The notes under the pieces were generated by a model. That model was not told the DNA's origin, made no database searches, and worked only from the letters and a program-made list of their open reading frames with translations. Both the position numbers and the translations under genes were made by a program. A stretch of 64,000 nt of DNA from a virus. Where the stretch lies: the IMG/VR virus record IMGVR_UViG_3300031132_000002; one strand, written 5' to 3'. Below, piece after piece: positions 1 to 19,022 of the stretch. The first letter of the stretch is position 1. The number at the start of each line of letters is the position of its first letter.

Positions 1-1
1 T

Positions 2-274
2 GGTGTTGACTATGACATTCGTATTCGTTGGAACACCCGAGATGAATCCTGGCAACTGTTCTTTGGCCCTTCTGGTGACGAAGCAGTTATCACATTCAAA
101 GCCACAAACGGATTAGATCTTCTTGCCCCTTACAAATACCTTGAAGGAGTGCCAGATGGTCAACTCTACTTGGTAGACACAGTTAAAATCAATGGACGCC
201 CAGACTTTTACGGTACGGGGATCGATATGAGATTTTGTCTTATGTACATTGATGCGGTACAGGATCAAGACTAA
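2..274 (+). CDS. 5'-truncated small baseplate protein
   Basis: Open frame GVDYDIRIRWNTRDESW...QDQD*; stop overlaps next ATG (TAATG); sits just before the baseplate hub. Confidence 0.7.
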   Translation, partial: GVDYDIRIRWNTRDESWQLFFGPSGDEAVITFKATNGLDLLAPYKYLEGVPDGQLYLVDTVKINGRPDFYGTGIDMRFCLMYIDAVQDQD

Positions 275-1287
275 TGCCGGATATTAAAACTAACGCTGTT
301 GCTAACTTAAATCACAGTTATAAACTCCTGATTGGTCAAGCAACAGATACAGCTAAAAAGACAAACGCCAACGGTACGTTTACTTCTAAGATCGATCTAG
401 ATACTAAACTAGCATCAACTAAGAAGTCAAGTGGAACGTTGAAGTTACTCACAGAACATCAGATCACTTTTAACGTTAAGAAAGATAATAATAAAGATCC
501 TAATAAGGCATCAATTATTATTTACAACTTATCTGACGACACAGTGAACTACATCAACAACAGCATCCGTAACAACTTAGCAGTGGCATTGGCTGTAGGT
601 TATCAAGGACAAGAAGAAGTGCTGATCTTTATCGGCACTGTCCAGTGGGTAAGTGATGTATGGAAAGGAACGGATAGACTGACAGAGCTACACTGTGTAG
701 ACGGCGGTATTAACATTTCTTTGGCAAACACAAGCCGTAGTTATCCGAAAGGAACTAAGATTTCAAAAGTCATTAAAGATATTGCCGGAGACTTGGGTAC
801 AAACTCAGGTAACTTGAGCATCGATAGTGACGCTGCGATTTCTAGTGCGAGTCATATGTGTGGTAACTCTTCCGAATATCTGGAGAGCTTATGCAAGAGC
901 ATTGACCACAACGTATCGATCCAAGATGGATCTGTTTATATCACACCACGTTCTCAGCGACAAGAGAAAAGAAGTGCATACATCAGCCCAGACACAGGAT
1001 TGATCGGAAGTCCTCAGCCTTTCCACAACGATATCAAACCAACTAAGAAAGTAACCAAAAGCACTTCGAAGAAAGCTAAAAAGCCAACTGACGGTGTTAC
1101 TTTCAAATGCCAGATTAACGGTAATATTCTGCCCGAGAAAACAGTATACCTAAAGTCCAGAAGTTATGACGGATATTTTAAAGTGGTTACGGTAACTCAC
1201 TCAGGAGACTACGAAGGTAAGGATTGGATCTCCGAAGTTGAGGCAGTCTCTGTTTCTGGTATCATCAATAAATCTACAACGGGGTAA
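274..1287 (+). CDS. Baseplate hub protein (Mu gp44/T4 gp27-like)
   Basis: Motifs PNKASIIIYNLS, SIQDG, TGLIGSP, VTHSGD typical of myophage hubs; synteny. Confidence 0.8.
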   Translation: MPDIKTNAVANLNHSYKLLIGQATDTAKKTNANGTFTSKIDLDTKLASTKKSSGTLKLLTEHQITFNVKKDNNKDPNKASIIIYNLSDDTVNYINNSIRNNLAVALAVGYQGQEEVLIFIGTVQWVSDVWKGTDRLTELHCVDGGINISLANTSRSYPKGTKISKVIKDIAGDLGTNSGNLSIDSDAAISSASHMCGNSSEYLESLCKSIDHNVSIQDGSVYITPRSQRQEKRSAYISPDTGLIGSPQPFHNDIKPTKKVTKSTSKKAKKPTDGVTFKCQINGNILPEKTVYLKSRSYDGYFKVVTVTHSGDYEGKDWISEVEAVSVSGIINKSTTG

Positions 1288-1290
1288 TAG

Positions 1291-2022
1291 ATGGATTCTC
1301 TAAACATCGTTACAGCTTTGCGTGGATTGATTAAGAACCAAATCTCTGAGGTGCATACGTCTCTGCCTGTACGTGTTACAGGCGTTGACTATGACGCTAA
1401 AACAGTGGTACTTGAGTCGGTTGTGAAAAATACAAAAGACTCAGAAAACGAGATCAACTATCCTACCTTTTACGATGTGCCAATGGCAATCAACGGAGGA
1501 GGAACAGGACGAATTTCTTTTCCCACGAAAGCTGGAGATGTTGGAGTTTTAATCTTCTCTGAAAGAGATCCATCTAACGCATTGCAAACAGACGGGAGCA
1601 CGGCTTCCAGTGCAACACTAAATCAACCTTGTGGATTATATCCTGTAGCCTTCATCCCAAAAATTACTATGGGAGGAGACTCAACCGAGAGTGTTGATCC
1701 AGATAAAGTTGTACTTAGCAATAACAAACAAAGTTATGTTTCACTTTCACCCGATGGTGAGATTGAAGCGAGGAATGCTCAAGGAATGCTGGTAAGAGTT
1801 GACTCCTCAGGTATTCACTTAACAGATGGTGTCGGTACGCTAGATCTGGCTGGTGGTAATCTAACCTTTAAAGGTGGAACCGCCAATATTAATGGTATGA
1901 CTGTTGACTCAGCAGGTAACGTTAAAGATGCTAACGGCATTGGCTTGAATACGCATACTCACCCTGTAACAGGAGTGCAGACAGGAAGTAGCACAATCGA
2001 TACTAACACAGCACAAGGATAA
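1291..2022 (+). CDS. Baseplate central spike (gpV/gp138-like)
   Basis: N-terminal OB-fold-like HTSLPVRV..GDVG, beta-repeat region, C-terminal HTH iron-binding motif (THTHPV). Confidence 0.85.
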   Translation: MDSLNIVTALRGLIKNQISEVHTSLPVRVTGVDYDAKTVVLESVVKNTKDSENEINYPTFYDVPMAINGGGTGRISFPTKAGDVGVLIFSERDPSNALQTDGSTASSATLNQPCGLYPVAFIPKITMGGDSTESVDPDKVVLSNNKQSYVSLSPDGEIEARNAQGMLVRVDSSGIHLTDGVGTLDLAGGNLTFKGGTANINGMTVDSAGNVKDANGIGLNTHTHPVTGVQTGSSTIDTNTAQG

Positions 2023-2028
2023 TCATCA

Positions 2029-2646
2029 ATGGGGATTGCCTTCGATTTAAAGTTAGATACTTCTAACGATATTACAATTGGAGACGATGGTGATTTAGTA
2101 CTGACGACAAAAAGATCCGAGATGTGTATACAGACACTGAGCATCACCTTGAATACGTTTCAGGGTGAATGGTTTCTGAATACAAACTTCGGTATTCCAT
2201 ATATTCAGCAGATTATTGGTGTTGCTAGGAAGAAAGAGACCGTAGATAAGATCTTCCTTGCAGCCCTTGCAGAAAATACATATGTGGATGCTATCGTTAG
2301 CTATACATCATCTTTCGACAGAGATAACAGGTACTACAGTATCCAGGCAGCAGTTCAGGTCGCAGAGGAGGTGGTTTCAACAACCTTTAGCACCAGACCT
2401 TCTGATGAATACTATTACCCAACACCAAGCACAGAATCAACTGTTACTTGCTCCAAGTACACCTTGGAACCTTACGCAGGTGAGCTATACTACTTTGAGA
2501 ACATCGATGGTCTACCGTTCAATACCTACGCTACGTGGTGGAATGAGTGGTCAGGATCTGAGATCACTGAGATTGTATACGTTACTGACGAACAAGGTCA
2601 AGTGTTACTTACAAGTAGTGGTGCGAACTTGGAAATCACAAATTAA
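2029..2646 (+). CDS. Baseplate wedge / sheath initiator (gp46/gp25-like)
   Basis: LNTFQGEWFLNTNFGIPY motif; synteny. Confidence 0.75.
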   Translation: MGIAFDLKLDTSNDITIGDDGDLVLTTKRSEMCIQTLSITLNTFQGEWFLNTNFGIPYIQQIIGVARKKETVDKIFLAALAENTYVDAIVSYTSSFDRDNRYYSIQAAVQVAEEVVSTTFSTRPSDEYYYPTPSTESTVTCSKYTLEPYAGELYYFENIDGLPFNTYATWWNEWSGSEITEIVYVTDEQGQVLLTSSGANLEITN

Positions 2647-2649
2647 TTA

Positions 2650-2670
2650 AGGGGGCTTGCCCCCTCTTTT
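2650..2670 (+). terminator. Intrinsic terminator
   Basis: GGGGGC-TT-GCCCCC hairpin followed by TCTTTT. Confidence 0.6.
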
Positions 2671-2684
2671 AAAAGGAAGCTATA

Positions 2685-3635
2685 ATGGCCTCATCAGTAA
2701 GAATTTCACAACTACCAGAGTCAGGCAACTTAGCTGATACTGATTACCTGCTGGTAGAAAAGACAGACAGAACAACGAAGACAAGCATTGGTTATATGGT
2801 AACAAACTTGAAGCTGGCTAAGCTGACAGATTATAGTGCCAGTTCAGGAGCAGGGCTTGTGGGAACAACCGCAGGCGTGACTGTACAATCTGCTATCACC
2901 TCTTTACAAAGTGCAGACACAACACTGACAAACAGTATTTCTGCATTGACCACTAGAGTTAAGACAAATGAGACAGATATCTCATCGCTGAAAAGCAGCA
3001 CGTCCAGTAACTCAAGTTCTCTAAGTGAACTATCTAGTCGTGTAAGCAGTGCAGAGACTTCTATTACATCGCTTTCAGATACGAGTGTTCAGCAGGATTC
3101 AGATTTAGTGGCAATCAAGAGCAACATCTCAGGGCTTACATCCAAAACAGATCAAACTGATAGTGATGTTACTGCCGCAGTTGTTCGTATTAGTACATTA
3201 GAGTCTGGCCTGACTAATACAAATGATAATGTCGAGAATGTTACCACTAGCGTAACTGCCTTGCAAGACCGTTTTGTAGAAGTGCCGGAGATGATTGAGT
3301 ATAAGGTAACAGATACTGGTGGATATAAGATCTTCAAGAACGGAAGTATGCTTTCTTGGGGTAGAGTTGTCCCTACATCAGGGCAGACAGACGTAACCTT
3401 TACCAAGGCTTATTCTACAGCACCAAATGATATTCAGTTAACAACTGAAACAGGGAGCGGTGCCTCAAGCGGTGCAGTTCTGGCGACAACTATTCTTGTG
3501 ACCGATAGTGTTACAACAACAGGCTTCTCTGTTCGTTCTCTCCAGGTTGATTCAGGTACTGTAGGTAATTCTACTTCTCCTTTCCACTGGAGAGCAGAAT
3601 ACACGCCAACAGGTACGCTGATCCCTACAACATAA
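2685..3635 (+). CDS. Coiled-coil fibre/whisker protein with fibre-tip-like C-terminal domain
   Basis: VRISQLP N-terminus, long heptad Ser/Thr coiled coil, GYKIFKNGSMLSWG...FHWRAE tip. Confidence 0.7.
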   Translation: MASSVRISQLPESGNLADTDYLLVEKTDRTTKTSIGYMVTNLKLAKLTDYSASSGAGLVGTTAGVTVQSAITSLQSADTTLTNSISALTTRVKTNETDISSLKSSTSSNSSSLSELSSRVSSAETSITSLSDTSVQQDSDLVAIKSNISGLTSKTDQTDSDVTAAVVRISTLESGLTNTNDNVENVTTSVTALQDRFVEVPEMIEYKVTDTGGYKIFKNGSMLSWGRVVPTSGQTDVTFTKAYSTAPNDIQLTTETGSGASSGAVLATTILVTDSVTTTGFSVRSLQVDSGTVGNSTSPFHWRAEYTPTGTLIPTT

Positions 3636-3638
3636 GGA

Positions 3639-3667
3639 TTGACTTTTTAGGACAAGGATGTTATGAT
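3639..3667 (+). promoter_or_regulatory. Sigma70-like promoter inside the tail operon
   Basis: TTGACT-N17-TATGAT. Confidence 0.6.
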
Positions 3668-3681
3668 ACAGGTTGACAATA

Positions 3682-3924
3682 ATGAAAAAGTTTTTTATCG
3701 GTATGTTTTGTACCTACCCTGGGAATAAGATCAGCAGCACTAAAGTCTGGAACTTTATTGGACTTTCAGTAATGACTGGAATGTTTATTTACTTGGGAAT
3801 CAAAAAGGACATTCCTGAATGGATGGGATGGACTTACGTATTTATGATTACTCCATCAAGGCTTATGAAAAATCTTATTGATCTACGTTGGGGTAGAGTA
3901 TCATCTTCTAAAGGAGAAGAATAA
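3682..3924 (+). CDS. Small two-TM membrane protein (holin-like)
   Basis: Two hydrophobic segments and a charged C-terminus; ATG at 3682 preferred over TTG 3673. Confidence 0.55.
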   Translation: MKKFFIGMFCTYPGNKISSTKVWNFIGLSVMTGMFIYLGIKKDIPEWMGWTYVFMITPSRLMKNLIDLRWGRVSSSKGEE

Positions 3925-5408
3925 TGGCAGATTATGGTTTAACTGACGCAGGGTTTGTAATTCCTACGTTTGACGATATCTTAGATCGTTATGTAACAGC
4001 ACTACAAAATACTTTCGGAAGTGATGTAGCCACATCAGAAGATACTGTCTTCGGTCAGTTATTCCGTATTGTAGCCTACACAGACTACACCCTTTGGGAA
4101 GGAATGCAAGGAGTCTACAACTCCCAAACCCTGAACGGTGCAGAAGGTACATACTTGGATGACCTGTTCGCTAAGCGTGGCTTGACTCGTCAATCAGCTA
4201 CAGCAGGTAGTGGCTTTGTTTATGTCAAGTCAACAAGCAAGGCATTGTGGACTGCATCTTTGGACACAGACACATATTTTACCGCAGATAATGATCTATC
4301 ATACTACGTCTCAAGTAAGACTCTGCTCAATGCTTCCATTGCAGCATACACTCTTACTAAAGCACAAGCTACCAGTGCAGCAGATCAAGTTACGTTCTAC
4401 ATTCAAAACACTCTGGATGGTGGTTTAAACTCCATCACTCTTACATCATCGTCTAACACATTTATGTCTGACCTGGTTACTTTTATTCAGGCTAACGTAG
4501 CATCAGCGGATAAGAGCCTTGTCAGTACTAAAGATGGCGTTTTGTATGTGGGTTTCAATACCGCAGACTACACCAATCCTGTAGGGCTGTCAACTGCAAC
4601 TAAGTTCTATGCTACAGTAAGTATTGGTACAAAGTGGAGCCTGATTCCAGTAGCTGCCTCTGAAAAAGGATATAATCCAGTAAGTACAGGCGGTATTACG
4701 GGTATCTCATCTACTTTCACCGGATACTCTGCGACAGGTAACTTCACTGCTTTCAGCACTGGTACGGATGTTGAGACAGATGCTGAATTCCGTTCTCGCT
4801 TCAATGATAACCAAGACGAAGCAAACGCTGCCACACGTCCGGCTATTATTTCGGCTCTGCTGAACGTTCCTGGCGTGACAAAGGTTAGAGTATATGACAA
4901 CCCTACTTCTGTAGATCAGAACTACGCTCCAGCATTCACCTTCAACACAATCGTGTACGGTGGAGATGCAGAGACAGTGGCGCGTACCATCTACGAGAAG
5001 AAGCCAATCAACACTCTTACTTATGGTACTGTTGCAACGACAATTACCACAGAAGACGGTGGAAGTGAGATCATCAAGTTCACTCCAGGAAGTACCCGAG
5101 AGTACTCAGTAAAACTGGTTTACACTACAGCCTCAGGGAAAGTACTTACCACAACAGAGAAAGCTAACATTACCACAGCACTACGTGATTTGGAAGCATA
5201 CTTTGAGATTGGTAGTAAAGTAACTAATGATCAGATGAAAGGTGTTATTTACAACGCACTGGATTTTGGACGCTTGACTTACCTTGCTGTTTATGTTAAA
5301 CTAAGTAGTGAAGATGATGGAAGTTACAATAATGGTGACATTGAACCAGCATATAGCGTTGTACCATCTTTTGACACGAGTAACATCTCATACGAATACA
5401 AGGACTAA
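3924..5408 (+). CDS. Baseplate J-like wedge protein
   Basis: YGLTDAGF N-terminus, GTDVETDAEFRSR, VPGVTKVRVYDN motifs. Confidence 0.88.
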   Translation: MADYGLTDAGFVIPTFDDILDRYVTALQNTFGSDVATSEDTVFGQLFRIVAYTDYTLWEGMQGVYNSQTLNGAEGTYLDDLFAKRGLTRQSATAGSGFVYVKSTSKALWTASLDTDTYFTADNDLSYYVSSKTLLNASIAAYTLTKAQATSAADQVTFYIQNTLDGGLNSITLTSSSNTFMSDLVTFIQANVASADKSLVSTKDGVLYVGFNTADYTNPVGLSTATKFYATVSIGTKWSLIPVAASEKGYNPVSTGGITGISSTFTGYSATGNFTAFSTGTDVETDAEFRSRFNDNQDEANAATRPAIISALLNVPGVTKVRVYDNPTSVDQNYAPAFTFNTIVYGGDAETVARTIYEKKPINTLTYGTVATTITTEDGGSEIIKFTPGSTREYSVKLVYTTASGKVLTTTEKANITTALRDLEAYFEIGSKVTNDQMKGVIYNALDFGRLTYLAVYVKLSSEDDGSYNNGDIEPAYSVVPSFDTSNISYEYKD

Positions 5409-5410
5409 AA

Positions 5411-6058
5411 ATGACTACCAATGTTGACCACGTAACTGTGTGGACGGACATTGTAGCTGACGTTAAAGATTTGCTTATTGAGGATTTTAAGTCATCTGAG
5501 AATATTGTCAAGTTAACTTACATTATTTCAGAGTCTAAGGCAAAGATAGATCAGGCAATGATCTATCTAGCCAAGCATCGACTTATTAGCACTGCCTCTG
5601 GAGCTTACCTCGACGAACTAGGGAAACAGTTAGGTGTTGACAGACAAGACTCAAATGACGATGAATATCGTGCTGTATTGCAAATCAGAGCATACCGCGT
5701 AACATCTGCTGGTAGTCGTCCTAACATTATTGAAGTTTTCTCGCGTTTCACAGGTTTGGAATCCACAGAAGTAAATACTTATGTAGGCTTACAAAAGTCC
5801 TTTGATATTGCTTTCTATAGTAGCTGTTTAAACGAGTCAGTTGCAGTAGAAGAACTAGAAAAGCTATTCCCTGTTGTATCATCTTATAGACTTTTAAGCA
5901 AGGGTGGTACTCCGTTTATTTTCGGTAGTGTTTACGATGACACAGATATGAGTCCAGACGGCGATAACGGGTTTGGTTCAATCACAGATAGTCAGAGCAA
6001 AGACTTCGCCGCAGGATATGGTGGAAGATTAGCTTCCCTATTAGCCGCCACTAAGTGA
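5411..6058 (+). CDS. Baseplate wedge protein (gpI/DUF2612-like)
   Basis: TASGAYLDELGKQLGVDR..DDEYR motif; follows the J gene. Confidence 0.8.
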   Translation: MTTNVDHVTVWTDIVADVKDLLIEDFKSSENIVKLTYIISESKAKIDQAMIYLAKHRLISTASGAYLDELGKQLGVDRQDSNDDEYRAVLQIRAYRVTSAGSRPNIIEVFSRFTGLESTEVNTYVGLQKSFDIAFYSSCLNESVAVEELEKLFPVVSSYRLLSKGGTPFIFGSVYDDTDMSPDGDNGFGSITDSQSKDFAAGYGGRLASLLAATK

Positions 6059-6067
6059 GGATTTTAA

Positions 6068-7012
6068 ATGGCTGCACCAACTTATTACCCAATCTGGGCT
6101 GAGCAAGATCAAAACCTGCCAGCTACAGGTGAGCCAAATAAGGATAGACCTAAGACAACCCTCCGCACAATTGGTTGGGATAAAGGTCAGATTCCTTCGG
6201 CAGAAGAAATGAACTGGATGTTAAATAACGTCTACCTTTGGATTAAATATTTCGACTCAGAACTTATTCCAGTTGGTTTGCGTAATGATAACACAAAGAT
6301 TACATTAGCTGGAGAAGTCACAGGTACTGCTACTTTTAGTGGAACCAATGAACTCTCTATTACAACTACAGTTGCCGCTTCTAGCGTTGCAACAACTGCA
6401 AATACCTTGGTACGCAGAAATTCAGATCAATCGATCCGTGCAGGAGATATTTACTCATACGCAACAAGTTCATCTGATAGTGCCAGCTACTTCTTAGTTG
6501 ATCCTAGTGGAGTAGAGTACGGAGAGATGAGCGCCGCGCCAGGTGCAGCAGGGGCAGTATTCATCCTTAGTAAAAACCCTGTTAACGGTGCAGTAGTATC
6601 TTCTATTTATTTGCAGTCAGGATACATCACTCTGACCTCTCCTCGTAGTTCTACTGGACAAGAGACAACGGGGGCTGCGCTGGTGCGTTATGATACTTTC
6701 AGTGCTAACGTATCTAACTTGCAGAATAGCATCAATACTGTAAACTCAAACCTGACAAACTCCATTAACACAAATGTTAATAACTTGAGTGCTGCTATAA
6801 ACCAGCTTAGAAGCGATGTAGCAAGAACCTATGTTACTAACATCCGTCTTGTTAATAGGGCAGGTTGGGAAGTTGGGGGAGATGCTTATGAGTATGCTAA
6901 CGGTTATGTCGTAACTACAGGGGGAGACTTCGGTGCCTCAAACGGTTACTATCTTGGACGTCAGTTACAGTACCAAATTAACGGCAACTGGTACACAGCA
7001 AACTACGGATAA
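6068..7012 (+). CDS. Tail fibre protein
   Basis: GWDKGQIPSAEEMNW attachment motif; C-terminal LQYQINGNWYT. Confidence 0.85.
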   Translation: MAAPTYYPIWAEQDQNLPATGEPNKDRPKTTLRTIGWDKGQIPSAEEMNWMLNNVYLWIKYFDSELIPVGLRNDNTKITLAGEVTGTATFSGTNELSITTTVAASSVATTANTLVRRNSDQSIRAGDIYSYATSSSDSASYFLVDPSGVEYGEMSAAPGAAGAVFILSKNPVNGAVVSSIYLQSGYITLTSPRSSTGQETTGAALVRYDTFSANVSNLQNSINTVNSNLTNSINTNVNNLSAAINQLRSDVARTYVTNIRLVNRAGWEVGGDAYEYANGYVVTTGGDFGASNGYYLGRQLQYQINGNWYTANYG

Positions 7013-7014
7013 TT

Positions 7015-7443
7015 ATGCATAAGAATTTCCAAAAGTACATTCCAGAAGACCCCTTTTTAAGGGGTTTATCTACTGATCATAACATTGCATTTCTTCGTGA
7101 TGAAGATGGTGTTGATTATTATGACTTAGCTAAGACACTGGACACTACTAAATATACAGTAATGCTGTGCAAGAACAATATTGTGCGCAGTTACGATAAA
7201 GACCCTAATGTTATTTTTCCAATTCCAGAAGGTCATCTGTTACAAGTGGATGATTTAAATAACATTGATTATTTATCAAAGTATGACCCAGAAACAAAAA
7301 CGTTTTCACCTTTCGTCCCTAAGCCTTCTCTGGATAAACTACTCAGTCAACTTAAAGTTGCGGAGATCAAGAAGGAGTTAGGGGATTCCTCAGTTGACCA
7401 AGAGATTACATCTCTTAAGAGACAGATTGTAGATATTTCATAA
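7015..7443 (+). CDS. Tail fibre assembly chaperone (Tfa-like)
   Basis: KNFQKY...LRDEDGVDYYD motif directly after the fibre. Confidence 0.7.
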   Translation: MHKNFQKYIPEDPFLRGLSTDHNIAFLRDEDGVDYYDLAKTLDTTKYTVMLCKNNIVRSYDKDPNVIFPIPEGHLLQVDDLNNIDYLSKYDPETKTFSPFVPKPSLDKLLSQLKVAEIKKELGDSSVDQEITSLKRQIVDIS

Positions 7444-7453
7444 GGAGATTGTA

Positions 7454-7792
7454 ATGAACTGGAGCGACATTTGGGGCATTGCAAAAGACGCAATAATTCC
7501 TCTCGTAGGGATTATCGGGGCTTTCTTTAAGCAAAAGATTGACAAACTTGAAGAAGATATTGAAGAGTCCCAACAATCATACAGAGAGTTAGAGAAGAAA
7601 GTTGTATTTGTCGAATCTACTTATGCTACTAAAGCTGAGCTGACACAAATGTTGAACCAGATTAACTCAACCCTGATGAACAACAACACGACATTGGAGC
7701 AGAAAATCGAAAAGATTATGGATCTTAAGAATGCACCAATCAAACTTATGCTTGAAGAAGTTTATAAGCGCCAACGTACTAAGGATAATTAA
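7454..7792 (+). CDS. Single-TM plus coiled-coil protein (holin/antiholin-like)
   Basis: N-terminal hydrophobic segment then coiled coil; RBS AGGAG. Confidence 0.55.
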   Translation: MNWSDIWGIAKDAIIPLVGIIGAFFKQKIDKLEEDIEESQQSYRELEKKVVFVESTYATKAELTQMLNQINSTLMNNNTTLEQKIEKIMDLKNAPIKLMLEEVYKRQRTKDN

Positions 7793-10368
7793 TGGCTACT
7801 AACTTTCCAACATATCCGTCAACTACATTTGAGCAAGCCGTTGAGCTTGCCATCTTCTCGGCAAACCAATTGCATAACGTTATCAACGGAGATGCAACGT
7901 CTACCGTAGAAAGTGAAGACGGTGACATTCCATCGCTGAGATATGCGCTGGTAAACAACTTCTACTTCCGTTCACCTATTGCTTGGTCGGAAGGAAACAC
8001 TGCTGTAGTATTCAACCAGTTGTATTACTTCACGTCATTAAATGATCGTGTATCTGGACTATACTACGCCCCGTCAGCAACTGCAACAAACCCGATCACT
8101 TTAGGATCTAGCCCTATTGGAGATCCTAATTTTGTAATATACACTGCTACTGCAAATATCAAGCCTCTTCCTTTCACGAAAGATAAAGAGATTTCTGCCT
8201 ACGGTCGTATCTATTACAAAACCAATGACAGAGGAATCGATAGCTCTTACGCCTATATCGGTACAGCTATCCCTTATGTTACTACAGCAGACTCACCAGA
8301 AGCAGACCAGAGCGGTGTATGGTCAGCATCAAACCCTACAGGTATCTGGTTGAAACTAGGGGAAGCAAACTCATACGATCTATTCTCTGCTAAAGATGGT
8401 GAGAAATACATTGGTAGCGCAGCGAACATTTCTGATTTACGTACTATTGAGCCTACTGTCCAAGGTCAACGTGTTTGGCTGAGAGAGTATGCCTCTAACA
8501 CAGGCCGTGGTCAAGGATATTTCATCTATAATGCTAACGACACTACATCCGTAGATGACGCTGGATACATTGTAGTGACCGCAGGTGGTAAGCGTTGGAA
8601 ACGTGACCTTGAACCAGAACAACTGCTTGTAACGCATTACGGTGCGCTTATGGATGGTACAACAGATGATATGCCCGCCTGTAAGAGAATGTACACAGGT
8701 ACAAGGAACTTAGGCTCAGCTAACGCCATTGGTATTCGTCTGCCAGCAGGTAAGATTGCTCTAAAAAGTACATTCAACGAAAGTGGATCTACAGAGCAGC
8801 CAATCTTCTCTATTAAAGGGCCAGCAGTTGATTACGGGGTTAACCCTAAAGTTCAGGTTTACTTCTTGGACAAGACTTCAACTACACCTGTGTTCCAGGT
8901 GAATGCTCGTCGTACAGAGGTTACTGGTTTGCACCTTCAAGGGGCTGGAACTACAACTCCATTCTTCAAGAACGTGTGTCCGGCAGGTCAGTATTACCGT
9001 GTTAAGAACATCCGTTGTAACAGTACAGGTGGAATGGTATTTGAACTTCTTGATACCATTGATACAGCCTTCGAGCAAATTTATTGCTACAGCATTACGG
9101 GCGGCTTCCTTCGTGCGGGATGGACTAACACCAAAACTGGTGCTTGGGATCACTCAACAGCGATTGAAATCTCTAACTCAAACTTCTCAAGTGGGAAGAA
9201 AATCGAAGCTATTACAGCGATTCGTGCTGGTCAGTGTATTATGCGTAATACTTGGTTCAGTAATAACGAATACACCTTTGATATTTCTCAGGGTGGTTGG
9301 CTGTTTGATACGGTAATTATGGAGAACTCAACTTACCCAGGTAAGACTAAGTACTCTAAAATCATCCAGATCAACTGTCGTTTCGCTCAGGGTGCTACTA
9401 TGGATGATACATTATCTGGTTACACTAAAGATATGGATCTTGTCAATGGTGGTAGTGGTAACATTCCTTCTTGGGTAGGTAACAGTTATGACCAAGGTAA
9501 GGTACGTATCAACCTATTAGGTAGTTACTTCGACGGGCCATTAGCCGCAAGATTTACGTATACCGAGCAGTACCTGGATAACGGAAATAGCGCAGCAACT
9601 TGGTTTGACTTAGGGAAGATTACTCTGCAAGGACTAGGTAGAACAGCACATATCAAAGTAACAGGTATGCGTGGTTGGGATTCAGTGAGTGACGGGCCTA
9701 AGATGCCAGCACACACAGCCTTCGGTGGTGGTGAAGCCAATATCTACTTCGAGCTTAAGTACCCTAATAGTTCAGGAACTACTGCGGGTCAGTTACACTG
9801 GCACGGTACAGATGGTTGTCCTGTAACCGCAGTTAAATATGTTCATACTTGGCAGAGCATCCAGCTTTATGTACAGCTTGCGCCATACGCTCTCCACGCT
9901 TCGGTCTTTATGACTCTGAACGGTACTGTACGTATCGCAACGGGGAACCCAGCATACACTGTATGGTCAGGGGCAGAGATCTCAGAAGCAGAGTTGAATG
10001 CAAAGACGAACATTACTACTGCACCTTGCAGATGGTCAATCAACAAAGGGGATTATAACGGTAACGGATTCGGTATGGATATTGATGCTGGTATGCTACA
10101 GTACCACGGTGCCACTACCGCAGAAGCTGCTGCTACCTCATTACCAATCTACATTAACGGTTCACAGTATAACATTCCACTGAACCCACTAACATCTTCT
10201 ATGCGTATCCCACGATACACAGTAGACACTATGCCTTCTCCATCGGCTAACGTGTACGGAATTGTGCTTTGTACGAACACGATTCTTTCTCCTGCTGCAC
10301 AGTTGATGTATAGCGATGGAACCAGATGGTTTGCCACAAGCGGAAACGCAAACTGGAAAACTGCATAA
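7792..10368 (+). CDS. Tailspike / EPS depolymerase (beta-helix, AmsF/WceF-like)
   Basis: Virion-attachment N-terminus (QLHNVINGD..VESEDGDIPSLR), DDAGYIVVTAGGKRWKR, HYGALMDGTTDD beta-helix start, WDHSTAIE motif. Confidence 0.8.
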   Translation: MATNFPTYPSTTFEQAVELAIFSANQLHNVINGDATSTVESEDGDIPSLRYALVNNFYFRSPIAWSEGNTAVVFNQLYYFTSLNDRVSGLYYAPSATATNPITLGSSPIGDPNFVIYTATANIKPLPFTKDKEISAYGRIYYKTNDRGIDSSYAYIGTAIPYVTTADSPEADQSGVWSASNPTGIWLKLGEANSYDLFSAKDGEKYIGSAANISDLRTIEPTVQGQRVWLREYASNTGRGQGYFIYNANDTTSVDDAGYIVVTAGGKRWKRDLEPEQLLVTHYGALMDGTTDDMPACKRMYTGTRNLGSANAIGIRLPAGKIALKSTFNESGSTEQPIFSIKGPAVDYGVNPKVQVYFLDKTSTTPVFQVNARRTEVTGLHLQGAGTTTPFFKNVCPAGQYYRVKNIRCNSTGGMVFELLDTIDTAFEQIYCYSITGGFLRAGWTNTKTGAWDHSTAIEISNSNFSSGKKIEAITAIRAGQCIMRNTWFSNNEYTFDISQGGWLFDTVIMENSTYPGKTKYSKIIQINCRFAQGATMDDTLSGYTKDMDLVNGGSGNIPSWVGNSYDQGKVRINLLGSYFDGPLAARFTYTEQYLDNGNSAATWFDLGKITLQGLGRTAHIKVTGMRGWDSVSDGPKMPAHTAFGGGEANIYFELKYPNSSGTTAGQLHWHGTDGCPVTAVKYVHTWQSIQLYVQLAPYALHASVFMTLNGTVRIATGNPAYTVWSGAEISEAELNAKTNITTAPCRWSINKGDYNGNGFGMDIDAGMLQYHGATTAEAAATSLPIYINGSQYNIPLNPLTSSMRIPRYTVDTMPSPSANVYGIVLCTNTILSPAAQLMYSDGTRWFATSGNANWKTA

Positions 10369-12362: not shown

Positions 12363-12983
12363 CTAAAAGTTGAAAACATCTGGACTTTCTTTACCATCTC
12401 GCTCGAAAGAGTCAAAGCCTAAGTCAGCAGATACCTTCACTTCCACAAAAGAAGGACGCACTTTAACAAACTTAGCAAAGGTGTAGCCAGGGAACTTACC
12501 TGCAATTTTCTGAACGTGCTTTGTGTTCTCGTCTACATCATCAGACAAGATGATCACCTTATCCAGAAGAGTTTTCATAAACTTCGGAGAAGGGTGATAC
12601 TGACCATCATAATAAATCTCGCAGATGCTACAGCTAAAATGACCAGTGTACGGGAAGGCACAGTACTCATCCATAAACATAATGTTGAACGTCTTACCTT
12701 CGTAATCGAATTCAAATACTGCCAACAGATCTGAGATACCTTCATAGTCCTCGTCTACGGCACTCATAGAGCGTACACGGTTGAACCCGAGCAAAGATAT
12801 TGCTGCTTGTCGCAGAGGGTCAGAGGATAGCTCAGGGGCTTTCAGATAGATATCGATATCAGAACACTCCTTACCCATCCACCAATCACGAGGCGCACCG
12901 CCTGCAATAATAGCATTAGGATCAATCTTCTTAATGCGTTCCAGTACTTCTTCACCTAAACGCTTTTCATTATGACGATTCAT
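12363..12983 (-). CDS. tRNA nucleotidyltransferase/poly(A) polymerase head-domain protein
   Basis: IAGGAPRD...SDIDIY class II NTase signature. Confidence 0.8.
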   Translation of the reverse strand: MNRHNEKRLGEEVLERIKKIDPNAIIAGGAPRDWWMGKECSDIDIYLKAPELSSDPLRQAAISLLGFNRVRSMSAVDEDYEGISDLLAVFEFDYEGKTFNIMFMDEYCAFPYTGHFSCSICEIYYDGQYHPSPKFMKTLLDKVIILSDDVDENTKHVQKIAGKFPGYTFAKFVKVRPSFVEVKVSADLGFDSFERDGKESPDVFNF

Positions 12984-13604: not shown

Positions 13605-13808
13605 CTACACCTCCATTAGTTCTATGCTGATGATATGCACAGGATCTGCAATGTTAAAATACTTAGTACCAGGATAATGAGAAATACTGGCTACAAAGAA
13701 CTGTCCTTCTGGTAAAAATACCAGTTCATTCTTTCGCGGGATAACTGCATCTTGGTTATCATCGAAGTGGAGAGTTTTACCTTTAAAATCGTAATCAATC
13801 CTCTTCAT
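13605..13808 (-). CDS. Hypothetical protein, paralog of 13376-13603
   Basis: Start refined to MKRIDYDF; IPRKNE..FFVASISHYP. Confidence 0.65.
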   Translation of the reverse strand: MKRIDYDFKGKTLHFDDNQDAVIPRKNELVFLPEGQFFVASISHYPGTKYFNIADPVHIISIELMEV

Positions 13809-14091
13809 TTTCTTCCCAGCCCTCTTTAGGATTACCGAAGCGATCAGTCGGTTCATCACAATAACAACCGCAACACTTGCAGCAACCACAAGAATATGTG
13901 TCATCCCAATCGTCTTCATAATCGTCTTGGTCATACTCCGATTGTTCAGAGTCTGTGAGTGTGTACCATTCGTCAGTGAATGCTAGCACTACACGGAAAT
14001 CATCAGATCGACCTTGGAGCATTTCCTCCAGATCTTCACCAAAACACATCACGTCATCAGGCCACAACACTAAATCTTCATTGCCAATCAT
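13795..14091 (-). CDS. Very acidic protein with Cys cluster
   Basis: RBS GGAGG; EYDQDDYEDDWDD and CGCCKCCGCYC. Confidence 0.7.
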   Translation of the reverse strand: MIGNEDLVLWPDDVMCFGEDLEEMLQGRSDDFRVVLAFTDEWYTLTDSEQSEYDQDDYEDDWDDTYSCGCCKCCGCYCDEPTDRFGNPKEGWEENEED

Positions 14092-14123: not shown

Positions 14124-14213
14124 TTCATCATCTTTAATGTAGAACACGCATCCTATCACAAGAATAGTGAGCATTGCAACATCAAAGATTGTTAACATTG
14201 TCTGTCTATCCAT
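14121..14213 (-). CDS. 30-aa single-TM peptide coupled to the polymerase stop
   Basis: TAATG overlap; MDRQTMLTIFDVAMLTILVIGCVFYIKDDE; below the ORF-track cutoff. Confidence 0.5.
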   Translation of the reverse strand: MDRQTMLTIFDVAMLTILVIGCVFYIKDDE

Positions 14214-16807
14214 TAGTGACACTCAGCCCAGGATCTTCCTACGTCATAACCCGCAGTTAACTCTACATTTAGACCGTAGTATCGCCCAGCCTCCGTTACG
14301 GCAGTAACAGCCAATTCTCCAGCACGGGAATAAGCACTATAGAAACCACCGCGAGGCGAAGGATGCAGGTTAGCCCATTTACGACCTTCCTTCTCTTCCA
14401 ACTCTGCAAGAAGTTGTTTAGCCCTCTTCTCACAAGCTTTATCAATTGCTGCCTGCTCTTTCTCGTCTTCTACCTTCACCCAACCTAGTTCTTCTGGTCT
14501 CCACCATTTAAACTCAACCAGTTCTTTAGAGACTTCCACCTGTGCCTCATCGTGATAGGCGATCATTTGTTGAGCAAAAGGCATATTCTTCCAATCGTCA
14601 ACAAAGAAGTCACACAGCAAACCTTCTTCTTCAATGTAGTCATCATACAACACCATTGCACGTTTAGCACAAATAACACCGCCTGATTGGAACAGAGAGT
14701 TCAGGATAGCGTGAGCGGAACGAGTAGGGACTTTACGACCATCAATACCAGGAACGTAAGTTTTACCTGTTGCTGTCCAGTATGCAGACAACTTCTCTTT
14801 CAGATCTGCTAAAGGCTTCGCTGCTTCCCAGAAACCTCCAAACACCAGTTCACCAGTGTAAAGGTCACTACCGATAGTCTTGGCAACACGAGCCGCCTGA
14901 CTACCATAAGTACAACCGTATTTCACTGCCTTAGCACTGCCACGTTCAAACTTCTTACCGAGGATCTCAGAGATCTTTTCAGCAGTCTTAGTGTGAACAT
15001 CGTTGGGCTTATCCAACAGCAATGAGTTGCAGTATGGCTGACCTTCAACATCATATTTCCAAGTGTAGTGCGCTTCGATACGTGCTTCAAGGCTATCAAA
15101 GTCGTAACCGATTTGGAAGTAGTTAGGTGTATCTGCTCCAAACAAACTACGCATCTGTTCACCATACAGCGAAGTAACGCGAGGAATGTTTGCCACTGAC
15201 CTGTGCTTCATACGGCTTGTTGCCGCATCACACGTAGCCGCAGGTGTAGGGATTCGACCATCAGCCCTTACCGCAGCAACATAACCTTTATCTGGCTCTT
15301 CCTCTGGATCATCCCAATCAACACCACCGCCCAAGATAGAGTTACGACGATGCTTGAATGTCAGGTATTCCACAATGTCGATTGCAAACGGGAACTGCTC
15401 TGCAATCAGTGATAGGTTAGGGCAAATCTCTTTCTCCTGGCCCTTTGTAAAGCTAGGATTAGTTCTTACCTTAACACCACGCCCTTTTGCGATACGTGCT
15501 CTTAGAGTGGCTTCTAGGCGGTCTGGTGTACATTCCAGATGTTCACAACGATCATTCAGGAAGTTAGATTCAAAGGTTTGTTTCAGATAGTCCTGAATAC
15601 CTTTTTCCATCGCAGCATCTTCCTTTCGGTTCTTGGTGCCGGACTTCAAAGTAATGTCTTTATCCTTGTACTCACTTGGATTCCATCCCAAACCAACGAG
15701 CCAGTTTTTAATGTGCGTTGTATCGTTCAGCGTAGCCGGAACGTTAGGATCACAAATCGGAACTTCGGCTTCGAGCGGTAATGTAAACTCTTTACCTAGC
15801 GCTTTCAAGATGTAACCACCATTACCATCACCTACTAATTCACCGCCGTGTTTTGCAGCAAACTTGATAATGTTGGACGTAGGTTCTCCGTTCTTCTTGA
15901 ACTGCAACTTAGGTGGAATAAAATCTTTCAGATAACCCTTAGTGGCAGGCTTAGGTGGAAGAATAGGCTCTGCACGTTGACGGCGCTCCTCCATCTTTTC
16001 ATCAAGATCATTAATGTTAGCTTCTGCTTTCTTCATATCGAAGGCAAAGCCACGGTGTTCCTGTCGAGTGATAATGTCAGCTACACGCTGCTCAAGGATG
16101 AACGGGTCTAACCACTTGTCATAATCGCCCCACTCTTCTTGCAACATACGATATACAGCGGTGTTAGCCTTGTTGTCGTAGATACAGTAATACATCATAT
16201 CCGCAGCAAAAGTCTTAAATCGATCTTCTACAGGAATCTCTTTACGGAAATCACGTTTTACATCACCACCTGCTTTCTGTGATAGTGCGTCCAGGCTGTG
16301 ACCACCGAAGCGATCTGGGTTTAACACCTTACTCAGAATCATTGAGTCGATAATTTCTACGTTACTATCGCCCCAAGTGTTGTATTTAACACTGTAGTTC
16401 AGCTTGTAGAACAGCTTAACGGCTAAGAAGTCATAGTTAATGGTGTTATGACCAATGGCACGTTCAACTTTATACTCAGGTTTATCTGCAAAGTAACCTG
16501 TATGATTGACAAAATCAATAAACATACTAAGAGGAAAGTGAGTATAGTCCACTGGAACGTATTCTTTCAACTCGTATGTGTACTTATCGTCAGATTCAGT
16601 ATAAGGACGACCATCAAAGACATACTTATCACCATCGTGGAAGCCGACAATCTCTCCGCTTTCGTGGTTCTCCAGCACAATACAGTGCATACCGAAGCTG
16701 TCCCGCAGTCGATAAGGACTCTGCTTGTAGTCGATAGACGATTCTCGCAGTAAGTCTGTTGCCTCAATATCCCAAGTATAGGTATTCAGGGGAATATCAC
16801 CAATCAT
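14213..16807 (-). CDS. Family A DNA polymerase with 3'-5' exonuclease (T7 gp5-like)
   Basis: ExoI WDIEAT, ExoII GHNTINYD, motif A DFDSLEAR, motif B RGSAKAVKYGCTYG, motif C YHDE. Confidence 0.95.
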   Translation of the reverse strand: MIGDIPLNTYTWDIEATDLLRESSIDYKQSPYRLRDSFGMHCIVLENHESGEIVGFHDGDKYVFDGRPYTESDDKYTYELKEYVPVDYTHFPLSMFIDFVNHTGYFADKPEYKVERAIGHNTINYDFLAVKLFYKLNYSVKYNTWGDSNVEIIDSMILSKVLNPDRFGGHSLDALSQKAGGDVKRDFRKEIPVEDRFKTFAADMMYYCIYDNKANTAVYRMLQEEWGDYDKWLDPFILEQRVADIITRQEHRGFAFDMKKAEANINDLDEKMEERRQRAEPILPPKPATKGYLKDFIPPKLQFKKNGEPTSNIIKFAAKHGGELVGDGNGGYILKALGKEFTLPLEAEVPICDPNVPATLNDTTHIKNWLVGLGWNPSEYKDKDITLKSGTKNRKEDAAMEKGIQDYLKQTFESNFLNDRCEHLECTPDRLEATLRARIAKGRGVKVRTNPSFTKGQEKEICPNLSLIAEQFPFAIDIVEYLTFKHRRNSILGGGVDWDDPEEEPDKGYVAAVRADGRIPTPAATCDAATSRMKHRSVANIPRVTSLYGEQMRSLFGADTPNYFQIGYDFDSLEARIEAHYTWKYDVEGQPYCNSLLLDKPNDVHTKTAEKISEILGKKFERGSAKAVKYGCTYGSQAARVAKTIGSDLYTGELVFGGFWEAAKPLADLKEKLSAYWTATGKTYVPGIDGRKVPTRSAHAILNSLFQSGGVICAKRAMVLYDDYIEEEGLLCDFFVDDWKNMPFAQQMIAYHDEAQVEVSKELVEFKWWRPEELGWVKVEDEKEQAAIDKACEKRAKQLLAELEEKEGRKWANLHPSPRGGFYSAYSRAGELAVTAVTEAGRYYGLNVELTAGYDVGRSWAECH

Positions 16808-16839: not shown

Positions 16840-16869
16840 AGTATACACTAAACCCCTCTGCTCTGTCAA
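16840..16869 (-). promoter_or_regulatory. Sigma70-like promoter for the polymerase
   Basis: TTGACA-N18-TATACT, overlapped by GCAGAG/CTCTGC inverted repeat. Confidence 0.55.
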
Positions 16870-17207
16870 TACTCCGAAATTTTAAATAGTGCTGTAGGAA
16901 CTTCTGATCCTACTAGTCCAACACGGTAAGTTTCCAGCGTACCCGAGTGCCCATCGAACCAAGAAAGAACCTCTTTATCTGATCCCTTAGAAGCAAGACG
17001 AATACGAACATCACTACCTTCCAGCTTTAGAAGGGTAGGGACGCATTCACTTGTCATTTGAAGAGAAATAAATACTTCTCCTTGCTCGTAGTAAATCTTC
17101 TCTCCAGCAACAAATCCATAAAGGGCAACATCACCCTCTTCTGTTTCTAGATAAGCACTAACCGAAGAAGGATCATATACCGAAAGACCACGTAACATCA
17201 CTGCCAT
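16866..17207 (-). CDS. Hypothetical protein resembling a shortened myophage tail-tube (DUF3277-like) protein
   Basis: YDPSSV...LYGFVAG and GEVFISLQMTS..L recall tube motifs YDP..V..GF..G and GTITITL.QTS; RBS AGGAG. The CDS is solid; the family is tentative. Confidence 0.55.
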   Translation of the reverse strand: MAVMLRGLSVYDPSSVSAYLETEEGDVALYGFVAGEKIYYEQGEVFISLQMTSECVPTLLKLEGSDVRIRLASKGSDKEVLSWFDGHSGTLETYRVGLVGSEVPTALFKISEY

Positions 17208-17243
17208 TTTAAAACTCCTTTAAGGGGCTTTCGCCCCATTAGA

Positions 17244-19022
17244 TTAAAACTTCATATCGCCGCCAATGTTGGCGGGATTGCTAAAGTACTGCTCTTTATC
17301 GTGCAGCGTAGCTGTTTTGATATCGTAGTAGAAGTTACCCGCAGCACCTGTCTCAGAAAACTCACGGTTTTTCAGGATGAAACAGTTTGTTGTGTTACGT
17401 TCAATCGGATCTTCCGCTGCTTTATCACGTTCAAGTGCAATTGTGATGCCTGCACCTTTAGCAAGGAAGCTACTGCCCATTGTGTCATCTTCGGTGATGT
17501 GCTCATTGTTACCGTTAGCTGACTTCTTAACGTGAGAAATCACGATAATGGTGATGCCGTACTCTTTCATAATACGCTTCAACCAAGTAGCCAATTCCTC
17601 CTGCTCACGAACATCCATACCTGAGAGTAAGTCTGAGTATGGGTCAATGACCAGAATTGTTACACCGTAGTGTACAACCATCTCCAGCACTTTCTCTTTA
17701 ACACTCTCAACGCTTGCTCCACGGTCATCACAGACAAAGAACTTTGGAGTACCGTCTGGACGTTCATAGAATGCACGAATGCGTTGTTCGTTATCCAGCA
17801 AGATAGCTTCCCGTTCTTCTGGTGTCTTCCTGTGCAGAGGAATATGCAGATAAGAAGAAAGCAAGTTACGAGAGTATTTCTTGTATGTGGCTTCCAGTGA
17901 CAGGATACCTAAAACATCCTCAGGATGCTCTACAATGATATGCTTCGTTACTTCGTTCACCAATAGAGTTTTACCGATACTGGTTTTAGCCAGGATAACA
18001 GTAATCTCTTCTCGCACCAAACCACCACCAAGCATATTTGCAGCAACACGCATAAACGCTGGCAGCGTGATAATCTGTGCATCCATACACTCAAGCGCAG
18101 CTTCAAACAGCATATTCGAGGCATAAACACCTGCTGGAGTATACAGCTTAGACTTGAAGAACTGAGTCATAAAGTGATCTTTCTTTCCGTCTTCCAGCGC
18201 CTGATTTGGATCTTTGCAGTCCAAAGTCATCACGTAGACACGGTTACGAGGCAGTACTTTAACACACTTCTCCATCGCTTCTTGACCAGCTTTATCATTA
18301 TCCAGACAGAGAATGATTTTCTTGAACTGATTCAAGAAGTTATACTGACTCTGTAGTTGACGATGAAGAGAAGTCTCACCACAAGTTCCTGATACTACAG
18401 CAATCTCTGGGTATTTACCAGCAGGATCGTTGTCTTTCAGTAGCTGTACAGCCGCCAGTTGATCGTGCTCACCACCTACAATCAGGATTGTACCGGAAGC
18501 ATTACGGTATTTGAACTGACCAAACAGGTCACATTCTTTACCTGTTTCACCCAGAGGGCCAGGGTGTGCAAATTCTTTAGGGTGTTCTCTCACCTTATAA
18601 CCTGCAATCTCATATCCCTTTGTCACAGGATAATAGGTGCGGAAGATACTACCATCACTTGCATATTCGTACCGAACACCAAGAGGCTTTGAAATATCCT
18701 CTCGAATACCACGGTAGTTTTTAGGGTGTGTACCAGTAATCTCCTTTAACTTTTTGTGAATCTCAGCATTGAATTCTCTTCCCACTATTTCTTCCTCTTC
18801 TTCTAGTTCTTGACCATTTTCTCTTAACCATTTTTGACTCGGGATGGTGTATTCACAAGAGAAACAGAATCCACCTTTATGTTCTTCATCTGAATCCAAG
18901 CCATATACCATAAGGTTATTTCCTGAACGATCCCTTCCCTTGCTTACGCAACGGGGGCAAGCCTGATGCCCTTCTCGTGATAAATCAACTTCTACGCCAT
19001 ACTTCTTAATGATGAAGCCCAT
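17244..19022 (-). CDS. Primase-helicase (T7 gp4-like)
   Basis: Zn ribbon CPRC...CFSC, TOPRIM GGEHD/LDNDKAG, Walker A AKTSIGKT, LVIDP, SHVKK. Confidence 0.95.
   Translation of the reverse strand: MGFIIKKYGVEVDLSREGHQACPRCVSKGRDRSGNNLMVYGLDSDEEHKGGFCFSCEYTIPSQKWLRENGQELEEEEEIVGREFNAEIHKKLKEITGTHPKNYRGIREDISKPLGVRYEYASDGSIFRTYYPVTKGYEIAGYKVREHPKEFAHPGPLGETGKECDLFGQFKYRNASGTILIVGGEHDQLAAVQLLKDNDPAGKYPEIAVVSGTCGETSLHRQLQSQYNFLNQFKKIILCLDNDKAGQEAMEKCVKVLPRNRVYVMTLDCKDPNQALEDGKKDHFMTQFFKSKLYTPAGVYASNMLFEAALECMDAQIITLPAFMRVAANMLGGGLVREEITVILAKTSIGKTLLVNEVTKHIIVEHPEDVLGILSLEATYKKYSRNLLSSYLHIPLHRKTPEEREAILLDNEQRIRAFYERPDGTPKFFVCDDRGASVESVKEKVLEMVVHYGVTILVIDPYSDLLSGMDVREQEELATWLKRIMKEYGITIIVISHVKKSANGNNEHITEDDTMGSSFLAKGAGITIALERDKAAEDPIERNTTNCFILKNREFSETGAAGNFYYDIKTATLHDKEQYFSNPANIGGDMKF

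Follow-up and report, generated by a model that had tools for sequence, protein, structure and literature searches.

Our analysis shows that the small gene lying between the primase-helicase and DNA polymerase genes of an uncultured phage is an old, diverged duplicate of that phage's tail tube gene. Its 113-aa product (P0001; ATG start; 16866..17207, minus strand), in the following called the paralog, is a true homolog of the phage's own PF11681/DUF3277-type tail tube, with a likeness far above chance, and makes a new, presumably non-structural addition to the tail-tube family. All coordinates refer to the window, i.e. the complete stretch of 64,000 nucleotides that was analyzed, which stems from a relative of the coliphages phi92 and phAPEC8 (Stephanstirmvirinae). 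By analogy with known tube sensors, the best-supported reading of the paralog's role, to which we assign a probability of roughly 0.4, is that it interferes with host immune sensors of free tube monomers, either as a silent decoy or as a shield for the tube's hairpin.

The upstream neighbor of the paralog is a 592-aa primase-helicase (Toprim + DnaB_C; phrog_239; 17244..19022, minus strand) and the downstream neighbor an 864-aa family-A DNA polymerase, PolA (14213..16807, minus strand), with 36 nt between the helicase stop codon and the paralog and 58 nt between the paralog and PolA. An earlier note on this DNA had described a 113-aa ORF that carries the strings YDPSSV..LYGFVAG and GEVFISLQMTS and runs with replication genes; both strings are found in the translation, and the gene is indeed co-oriented and tightly packed with helicase and PolA. 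The same note had placed it far from structural genes, which is correct for the tube gene (about 21 kb off) but not for the tail-fiber genes, since the baseplate and fiber genes on the plus strand (1-10368) end only 6.5 kb away. Glycosyltransferases, a gp162-like gene, helicase, a gp160-like gene, PolA and a nucleotidyltransferase follow one another in the same order in the window and in phi92, and the window PolA shares about 71% nucleotide identity with that of Phapecoctavirus.

A Shine-Dalgarno sequence, AAGGAG, can be read 7 nt 5' of the paralog ATG (17215..17220, minus strand). Between the helicase stop codon and this ribosome binding site lies a GGGGC-GAAA-GCCCC stem-loop with a GNRA tetraloop (17224..17237, minus strand), which has no T-run behind it and a fold z-score of just -1.8; a role in processing or stability, or as a weak attenuator, is conceivable. 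The region's best match to a sigma-70-like site, TTGACA-18-TATACT (11/12; 16840..16869, minus strand), overlaps the paralog stop codon 5' of PolA. Judged by its sequence, this site may provide PolA with a promoter of its own, in which case the paralog would close the helicase transcription unit. On the 3' side of PolA, a very acidic 98-aa ORF (13795-14091, minus strand) with the Cys-rich motif CGCCKCCGCYC extends into the 5' portion of a 109-aa ORF (13605-13934, minus strand) whose N-terminus is hydrophobic. The phi92 gp158-like nucleotidyltransferase, also 3' of PolA (12363-12983, minus strand), has only a sub-threshold match to the PolyA_pol head domain, and the copy of this gene on a related contig (L009, 9636-10295) bears a weak precomputed Pfam tag for Gad2 (anti-Gabija).

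When the paralog was searched as a single protein, neither Pfam nor the PDB sequences gave a match, a word-index homolog search returned the self-match only, and a related-locus search across viral and metagenome contigs found nothing. Among the PHROGs, phrog_22634 (function not assigned; includes phi92 gp160) matches the paralog with an E-value of 3.3e-7, and its profile is matched by 11/11 family members. A sister family, phrog_13903, is matched by 4/11 members and is labeled 'virion structural protein', presumably by annotation transfer. The tube family phrog_280 aligns with paralog residues 9-40 only (E 0.16, below threshold), whereas Pfam and phrog_280 do recognize the phage's own tube and the phi92 tube. 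Scanning 1.8 billion representatives in full with HMMER returned only about ten small relatives; the five long proteins in the same scan (P0010, P0011, P0013, P0015 and P0016) were rejected as compositional noise, with mixed Pfam content and no stretch passing alone. The resulting alignment of the paralog family (A3) comprises 14 sequences, which are 112-123 aa long and share 29-58% identity with P0001; three of them were added from an indexed search. Residues Y11, P13, G31, Q50, S53 and L59 are invariant in A3.

This family was compared with an alignment (A2) of 17 tubes of the phage's lineage. The phage's own tube (P0017, 159 aa) is encoded directly 3' of the sheath gene and was taken from a 146.6-kb metagenomic contig that shares the baseplate hub. 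BLASTP aligns the first 48 residues of P0001 with P0017 at 33% identity (E 4e-5). Comparison of A3 with A2 in hhalign gave a probability of 98.4% and an E-value of 4.4e-15, a pairwise value for which PDB-wide and genome-wide A3 searches served as database-level control. In the former, a hmmsearch of A3 against all PDB sequences, the phi92 tube gp131 (21vm) ranks first (E 9.6e-8); in the latter, six-frame scans of phi92 recovered gp160 and the tube only, and those of phAPEC8, an rV5-like phage and Henunavirus the tube only. The likeness to DUF3277 tube motifs, which the earlier note had pointed out and proposed to check by profile comparison with tubes including the phage's own, is thereby borne out. 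The hhalign pairing equates P0001 residues 1-42 with tube residues 1-38 and, after a single 24-residue gap (tube 39-62), residues 43-63 with tube 63-83. Run globally, the comparison covers tube residues 1 to about 137 and leaves tube 138-159 unmatched.

The predicted structure carries the relationship through the remainder of the protein. An AF2 model from the single sequence was poor (pLDDT 62) and was superseded by a model with A3 as input (pLDDT 83.5, pTM 0.74; residues 1-7 score below 50). When this model was aligned to 48,161 PDB representatives with VIA-align, the tubes of Pam3, Sf14 and PhiTE took the lead (Z 9.9, 9.8 and 9.8), superposing with an rmsd of 2.2-2.3 Å over 93-95 residues (model residues 11-113), and the best 37 rows were without exception (37/37) tail tubes, Hcp or tube-like domains of tail or injection-system proteins. 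Foldseek likewise ranked the PhiTE tube first, with a weak E-value of 1.4e-3. The structural check that had been suggested alongside the profile comparison thus points the same way (top hit Z 9.9, rmsd 2.3 Å), and these matches indicate that the C-terminal half of the paralog is also tube-fold despite having no detectable sequence similarity. The ESM Atlas contributed only tail-tip-protein look-alikes (Phage_tail_L, 0.94), which suits a tail-type beta-sandwich and is unspecific. In BFVD the best structural neighbors are uncharacterized proteins of 111-115 aa, among them A0A068EMY9 of Bacillus phage CP-51 and M1F2F1 of Cronobacter phage CR9; going by these models, short tube-fold proteins may be more widespread and present in unrelated phages.

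What the paralog has lost can be read against the PhiTE tail tube, which belongs to the same tube family (A2 profile versus 9cb9_B, E 3e-58). The PhiTE tube is an eight-stranded beta-sandwich with a helix alpha-1; its hairpin stretches across to several head-distal-ring subunits and makes much of the inter-ring interface, its 18-residue N-terminal extension wraps the hairpin of a head-proximal-ring subunit, and its C-terminal arm (alpha-2) wraps the lateral neighbor and binds sheath domain 1 (PMC11972413). The phi92 virion paper describes hairpin, N-extension and C-arm of gp131 alike. Tube residues 39-62, which form this extended beta-hairpin of 24 residues, are absent in 14/14 members of the paralog family, as is the 22-residue C-terminal arm (tube 138-159; 14/14). 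In P0001 the deletion junction falls at residues 41-44 (EQ|GE; 17076..17087, minus strand). The ring-forming hairpin had already seemed deleted in the earlier note, and the alignment places a clean gap opposite tube 39-62; the loss of the C-arm is new here. All members share the deletion boundaries, the C-terminal truncation and a beta1-beta2 loop that is 5 residues longer than the tube's, which argues, at the level of sequence, for a single origin of the family. Since hairpin and C-arm are both gone, the protein should be unable to stack into a tube or to hold the sheath, and on this anatomy it is very probably a non-polymerizing tube paralog and not a virion brick.

Retained are the eight-stranded beta-sandwich core with the one flanking helix alpha-1 (residues 16-113; 16869..17162, minus strand), which superposes up to about tube residue 137, and an N-terminal arm of about 15 residues, MAVMLRGLSVYDPSS (17163..17207, minus strand), homologous to the N-terminal extension of the tube. 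We infer that the surfaces which in a tube receive a neighbor's hairpin are still in place. Conservation in tubes peaks at the hairpin (mean pairwise identity 0.65). Within the paralog family the peak falls on the N-arm, with an invariant YDP and a mean pairwise identity of 0.47 versus 0.24-0.39 elsewhere. The monomer model shows this arm without defined structure (pLDDT 43), and that a disordered segment should be the most conserved one suggests, as far as sequences and model go, that it is a binding element.

Such an arrangement, with acceptor surfaces and a conserved N-arm kept and the donor hairpin lost, would also suit a tail-assembly holdase or regulator that has no immune role and uses N-arm and sandwich to bind free tube monomers or the growing end, blocking polymerization that is premature or off-pathway, or capping tubes. 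Translated tube proteins do tend to self-oligomerize (PMC10981675), and a chaperone would be missing from the phi92 virion model, as gp160 is. We nevertheless consider this role unlikely. The paralog is absent from Phapecoctavirus, whose tubes are 81-85% identical, and from Vequintavirinae (about 47%), both of which assemble normally; it never resides in the tail module, the home of the dedicated chaperone, terminator and tube initiator; and its sequence changes much more rapidly than that of the invariant tube that would be its client.

The family has a member in a cultured phage, phi92 gp160, which matches no PDB sequence. It is missing from the proteins built into the cryo-EM maps of the extended and contracted phi92 virion, so this member of the paralog family is likely absent from the virion. 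Our literature searches turned up neither a tube paralog without the hairpin nor a function for gp160. The note 'potential Endonuclease/Hydrolase' in NC_023693, and in records copying it, is all that speaks for a nuclease identity of gp160 and the paralog. Searches of Pfam, PHROG functions and PDB sequences turned up no nuclease, the structural matches obtained with VIA-align are tail tube beta-sandwiches, and the invariant residues listed above show no conserved acidic or His catalytic motif. An endonuclease or hydrolase is hence hardly credible, and the tube relationship corrects an annotation that has been propagated for gp160.

The family is small (about 14 clusters, including gp160). By tblastn the paralog occurs in 29 phage records, all of them Justusliebigvirus (phi92-like) and several mislabeled as Campylobacter phages, as against at least 1000 records with this type of tube. 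A3 profile scans found no paralog in phAPEC8, an rV5-like phage, CR8, SSBI34, Henunavirus or Barbavirus, and on this sequence evidence it is absent from Phapecoctavirus and Vequintavirinae. Between window and phi92 the tube is 82% identical, the helicase 74%, the gp162-like small neighbor 36% and the paralog 31%. The absence from sister genera, the low identity and a variable slot together identify the paralog, by sequence comparison, as a fast-evolving accessory gene. The nearest variant (L028) differs at 2 of 342 nt, too few for an informative dN/dS, and the relative that follows has diverged too far for one (56% amino-acid identity). As to the host labels, the records MG065639, MG065645, MG065656, MG065689 and others titled 'Campylobacter phage' hardly differ from E. 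coli phages of the Justusliebigvirus, Phapecoctavirus or rV5-like groups and probably carry wrong hosts.

In all metagenomic contexts examined the paralog is co-oriented with its neighbors and never in the tail module, and six of the eight contexts place it with genes for DNA replication or recombination. Adjacency to PolA comes in two arrangements: the paralog is 5' of PolA, behind the helicase, in the window, in phi92 and on two related contigs (L009 and L028), and directly 3' of PolA on L010, L011 and probably L013, where the upstream 629-aa ORF is cut by the contig end. On L014 it sits inside a ligase/RdgC/EndoVII/RNase H module and on L008 near HNH and DprA-like genes. These neighborhoods would fit a replication accessory, such as a non-stacking ring or adaptor serving PolA or the primase-helicase as a processivity or coupling factor, and tube-fold proteins do form hexameric rings that pass DNA (PMC11972413). 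Even so, we judge this explanation quite improbable. phAPEC8 has closely related helicase and PolA genes without the paralog, its slot (L007, 6283-7518) being filled by a 143-aa protein of an unrelated family (phrog_9938) along with a Dam methyltransferase; in an rV5-like phage helicase and PolA are directly adjacent; and one subgroup of the family (L027) is found among small ORFs 5' of the terminase. Moreover, the paralog is 31% conserved where the helicase is 74%, the C-arm that stabilizes a ring laterally is gone, and the protein has a net charge of -8 with no basic surface evident from its sequence.

The phAPEC8 protein gp077, considered as a counterpart in the helicase-PolA slot, proved unrelated to the paralog. 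The phi92-like contig L009 carries an additional 105-aa ORF (6412-6729) behind the paralog, and the varying content of the slot suggests that it behaves like an accessory-gene hot spot. In Cronobacter phage CR8 (L029) a 208-aa 'major tail protein' (phrog_13196; 1702-2328, minus strand) is encoded directly 3' of PolA on the same strand. It was rejected as a relative, having no sequence kinship to tube or paralog, and may provide a second example, independent of the paralog, of a replication module that harbors a tail-type protein.

Bacterial immune sensors recognize most core virion proteins, the tube included, usually as unassembled monomers, and the paralog touches on the question of how such sensors are evaded by phages whose structural proteins do not vary. 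We know of no sensor of PF11681-type myophage tubes that has been demonstrated in the hosts of these phages. The sensor DSR2 is activated by monomeric tube only, and the SPR tube without its 24-aa Loop1 associates stably with DSR2, does not switch on the NADase and has no toxic effect (PMC10981675). The paralog is accordingly of interest as a natural tube copy that lacks exactly the element needed experimentally for sensor activation yet not for binding, and by analogy its hairpin-less tube core would suit a DSR2-type sensor as a silent ligand without further change. Avs16, from a group of 13 STAND sensors assigned recently, recognizes the tail tube protein and has been modeled as touching the conserved hairpin (PMC13581612); it is the sole enterobacterial-type tube sensor with a structural description.

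Interference with tube sensors could then proceed in two ways. The paralog would be made from the replication-gene strand, judging by its position probably ahead of the late structural genes. As a silent ligand it might fill the tube-binding site of the sensor without delivering an activating hairpin; alternatively, its retained N-arm and sandwich might mask the hairpin on nascent tube monomers until these assemble. Because the Avs16 model involves the hairpin itself, for this sensor a shield would be favored over a plain decoy: if Avs16-like sensors mainly bind the hairpin, a protein devoid of one has no means of competing for them. Conversely, if the paralog clasps the near-invariant tube hairpin, fast divergence outside the N-arm is not obviously to be expected, and the prevalence of replication and recombination genes among its contexts fits a DNA-related role too. 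We put forward only tentatively, and consider doubtful, the wider scenario in which several phage lineages turned a tube-gene duplicate into early-expressed immune evasion, with a hairpin-deleted surrogate that blocks DSR2-like or Avs16-like receptors or hides nascent hairpins. If it holds, the paralog would be a 'self-decoy' built from the very structural protein the host detects, and duplicating the antigen and deleting the trigger would be a simple, evolvable counter-measure. Should the function turn out to be morphogenetic or replicative instead, it would still be a new, non-virion use of the tail-tube fold.

Among known proteins, the paralog shares common ancestry with the tubes of PF11681 (KPP10_Orf10/DUF3277)/phrog_280, such as phi92 gp131 (21vm) and PhiTE (9cb9). 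Both have the N-arm MDKxLxGxxAYDPS together with YGF, KI and LQxTS, a common fold of beta-sandwich and helix along the entire length (Z 9.8-9.9) and an acidic character. In contrast to these tubes, the paralog is without the 24-residue inter-ring hairpin and the 22-residue C-arm, falls below the Pfam and phrog_280 thresholds, evolves several times faster and is encoded among replication or early genes, whereas the real tube gene adjoins the sheath gene. phi92 gp160 (phrog_22634) belongs to the same family and occupies the same primase-helicase/PolA slot at 31% identity; it is longer (131 versus 113 aa), and its published annotation gives no hint of a tube. The tube initiator gp135, the hub gp137, the tail terminator and T6SS Hcp likewise have the paralog's beta-sandwich fold exapted to roles other than tube brick. 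Unlike the paralog, they are parts of virions or secretion machines from structural clusters, and in a scan of the phi92 genome the A3 profile gave no match to gp135, gp137 or the tail terminator.

With respect to immune evasion, Tai tail-assembly-interference systems are irrelevant, their target being the central fiber. The phage anti-DSR2 protein DSAD1 keeps a tube sensor silent, as is proposed for the paralog; it is not reported to be tube-like and acts allosterically on the open CTD, a comparison made by description only. Another parallel is the engineered SPR tube deltaLoop1 (with a linker in place of Q34-K57; PMC10981675), a laboratory-made derivative of a Bacillus siphophage tube; the paralog, a natural protein, corresponds to it by analogy where DSR2 is concerned. 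Both are beta-sandwiches without the 24-residue beta2-beta3 hairpin or loop, and the stable, non-activating binding of deltaLoop1 to DSR2 is the behavior that a natural decoy would need.
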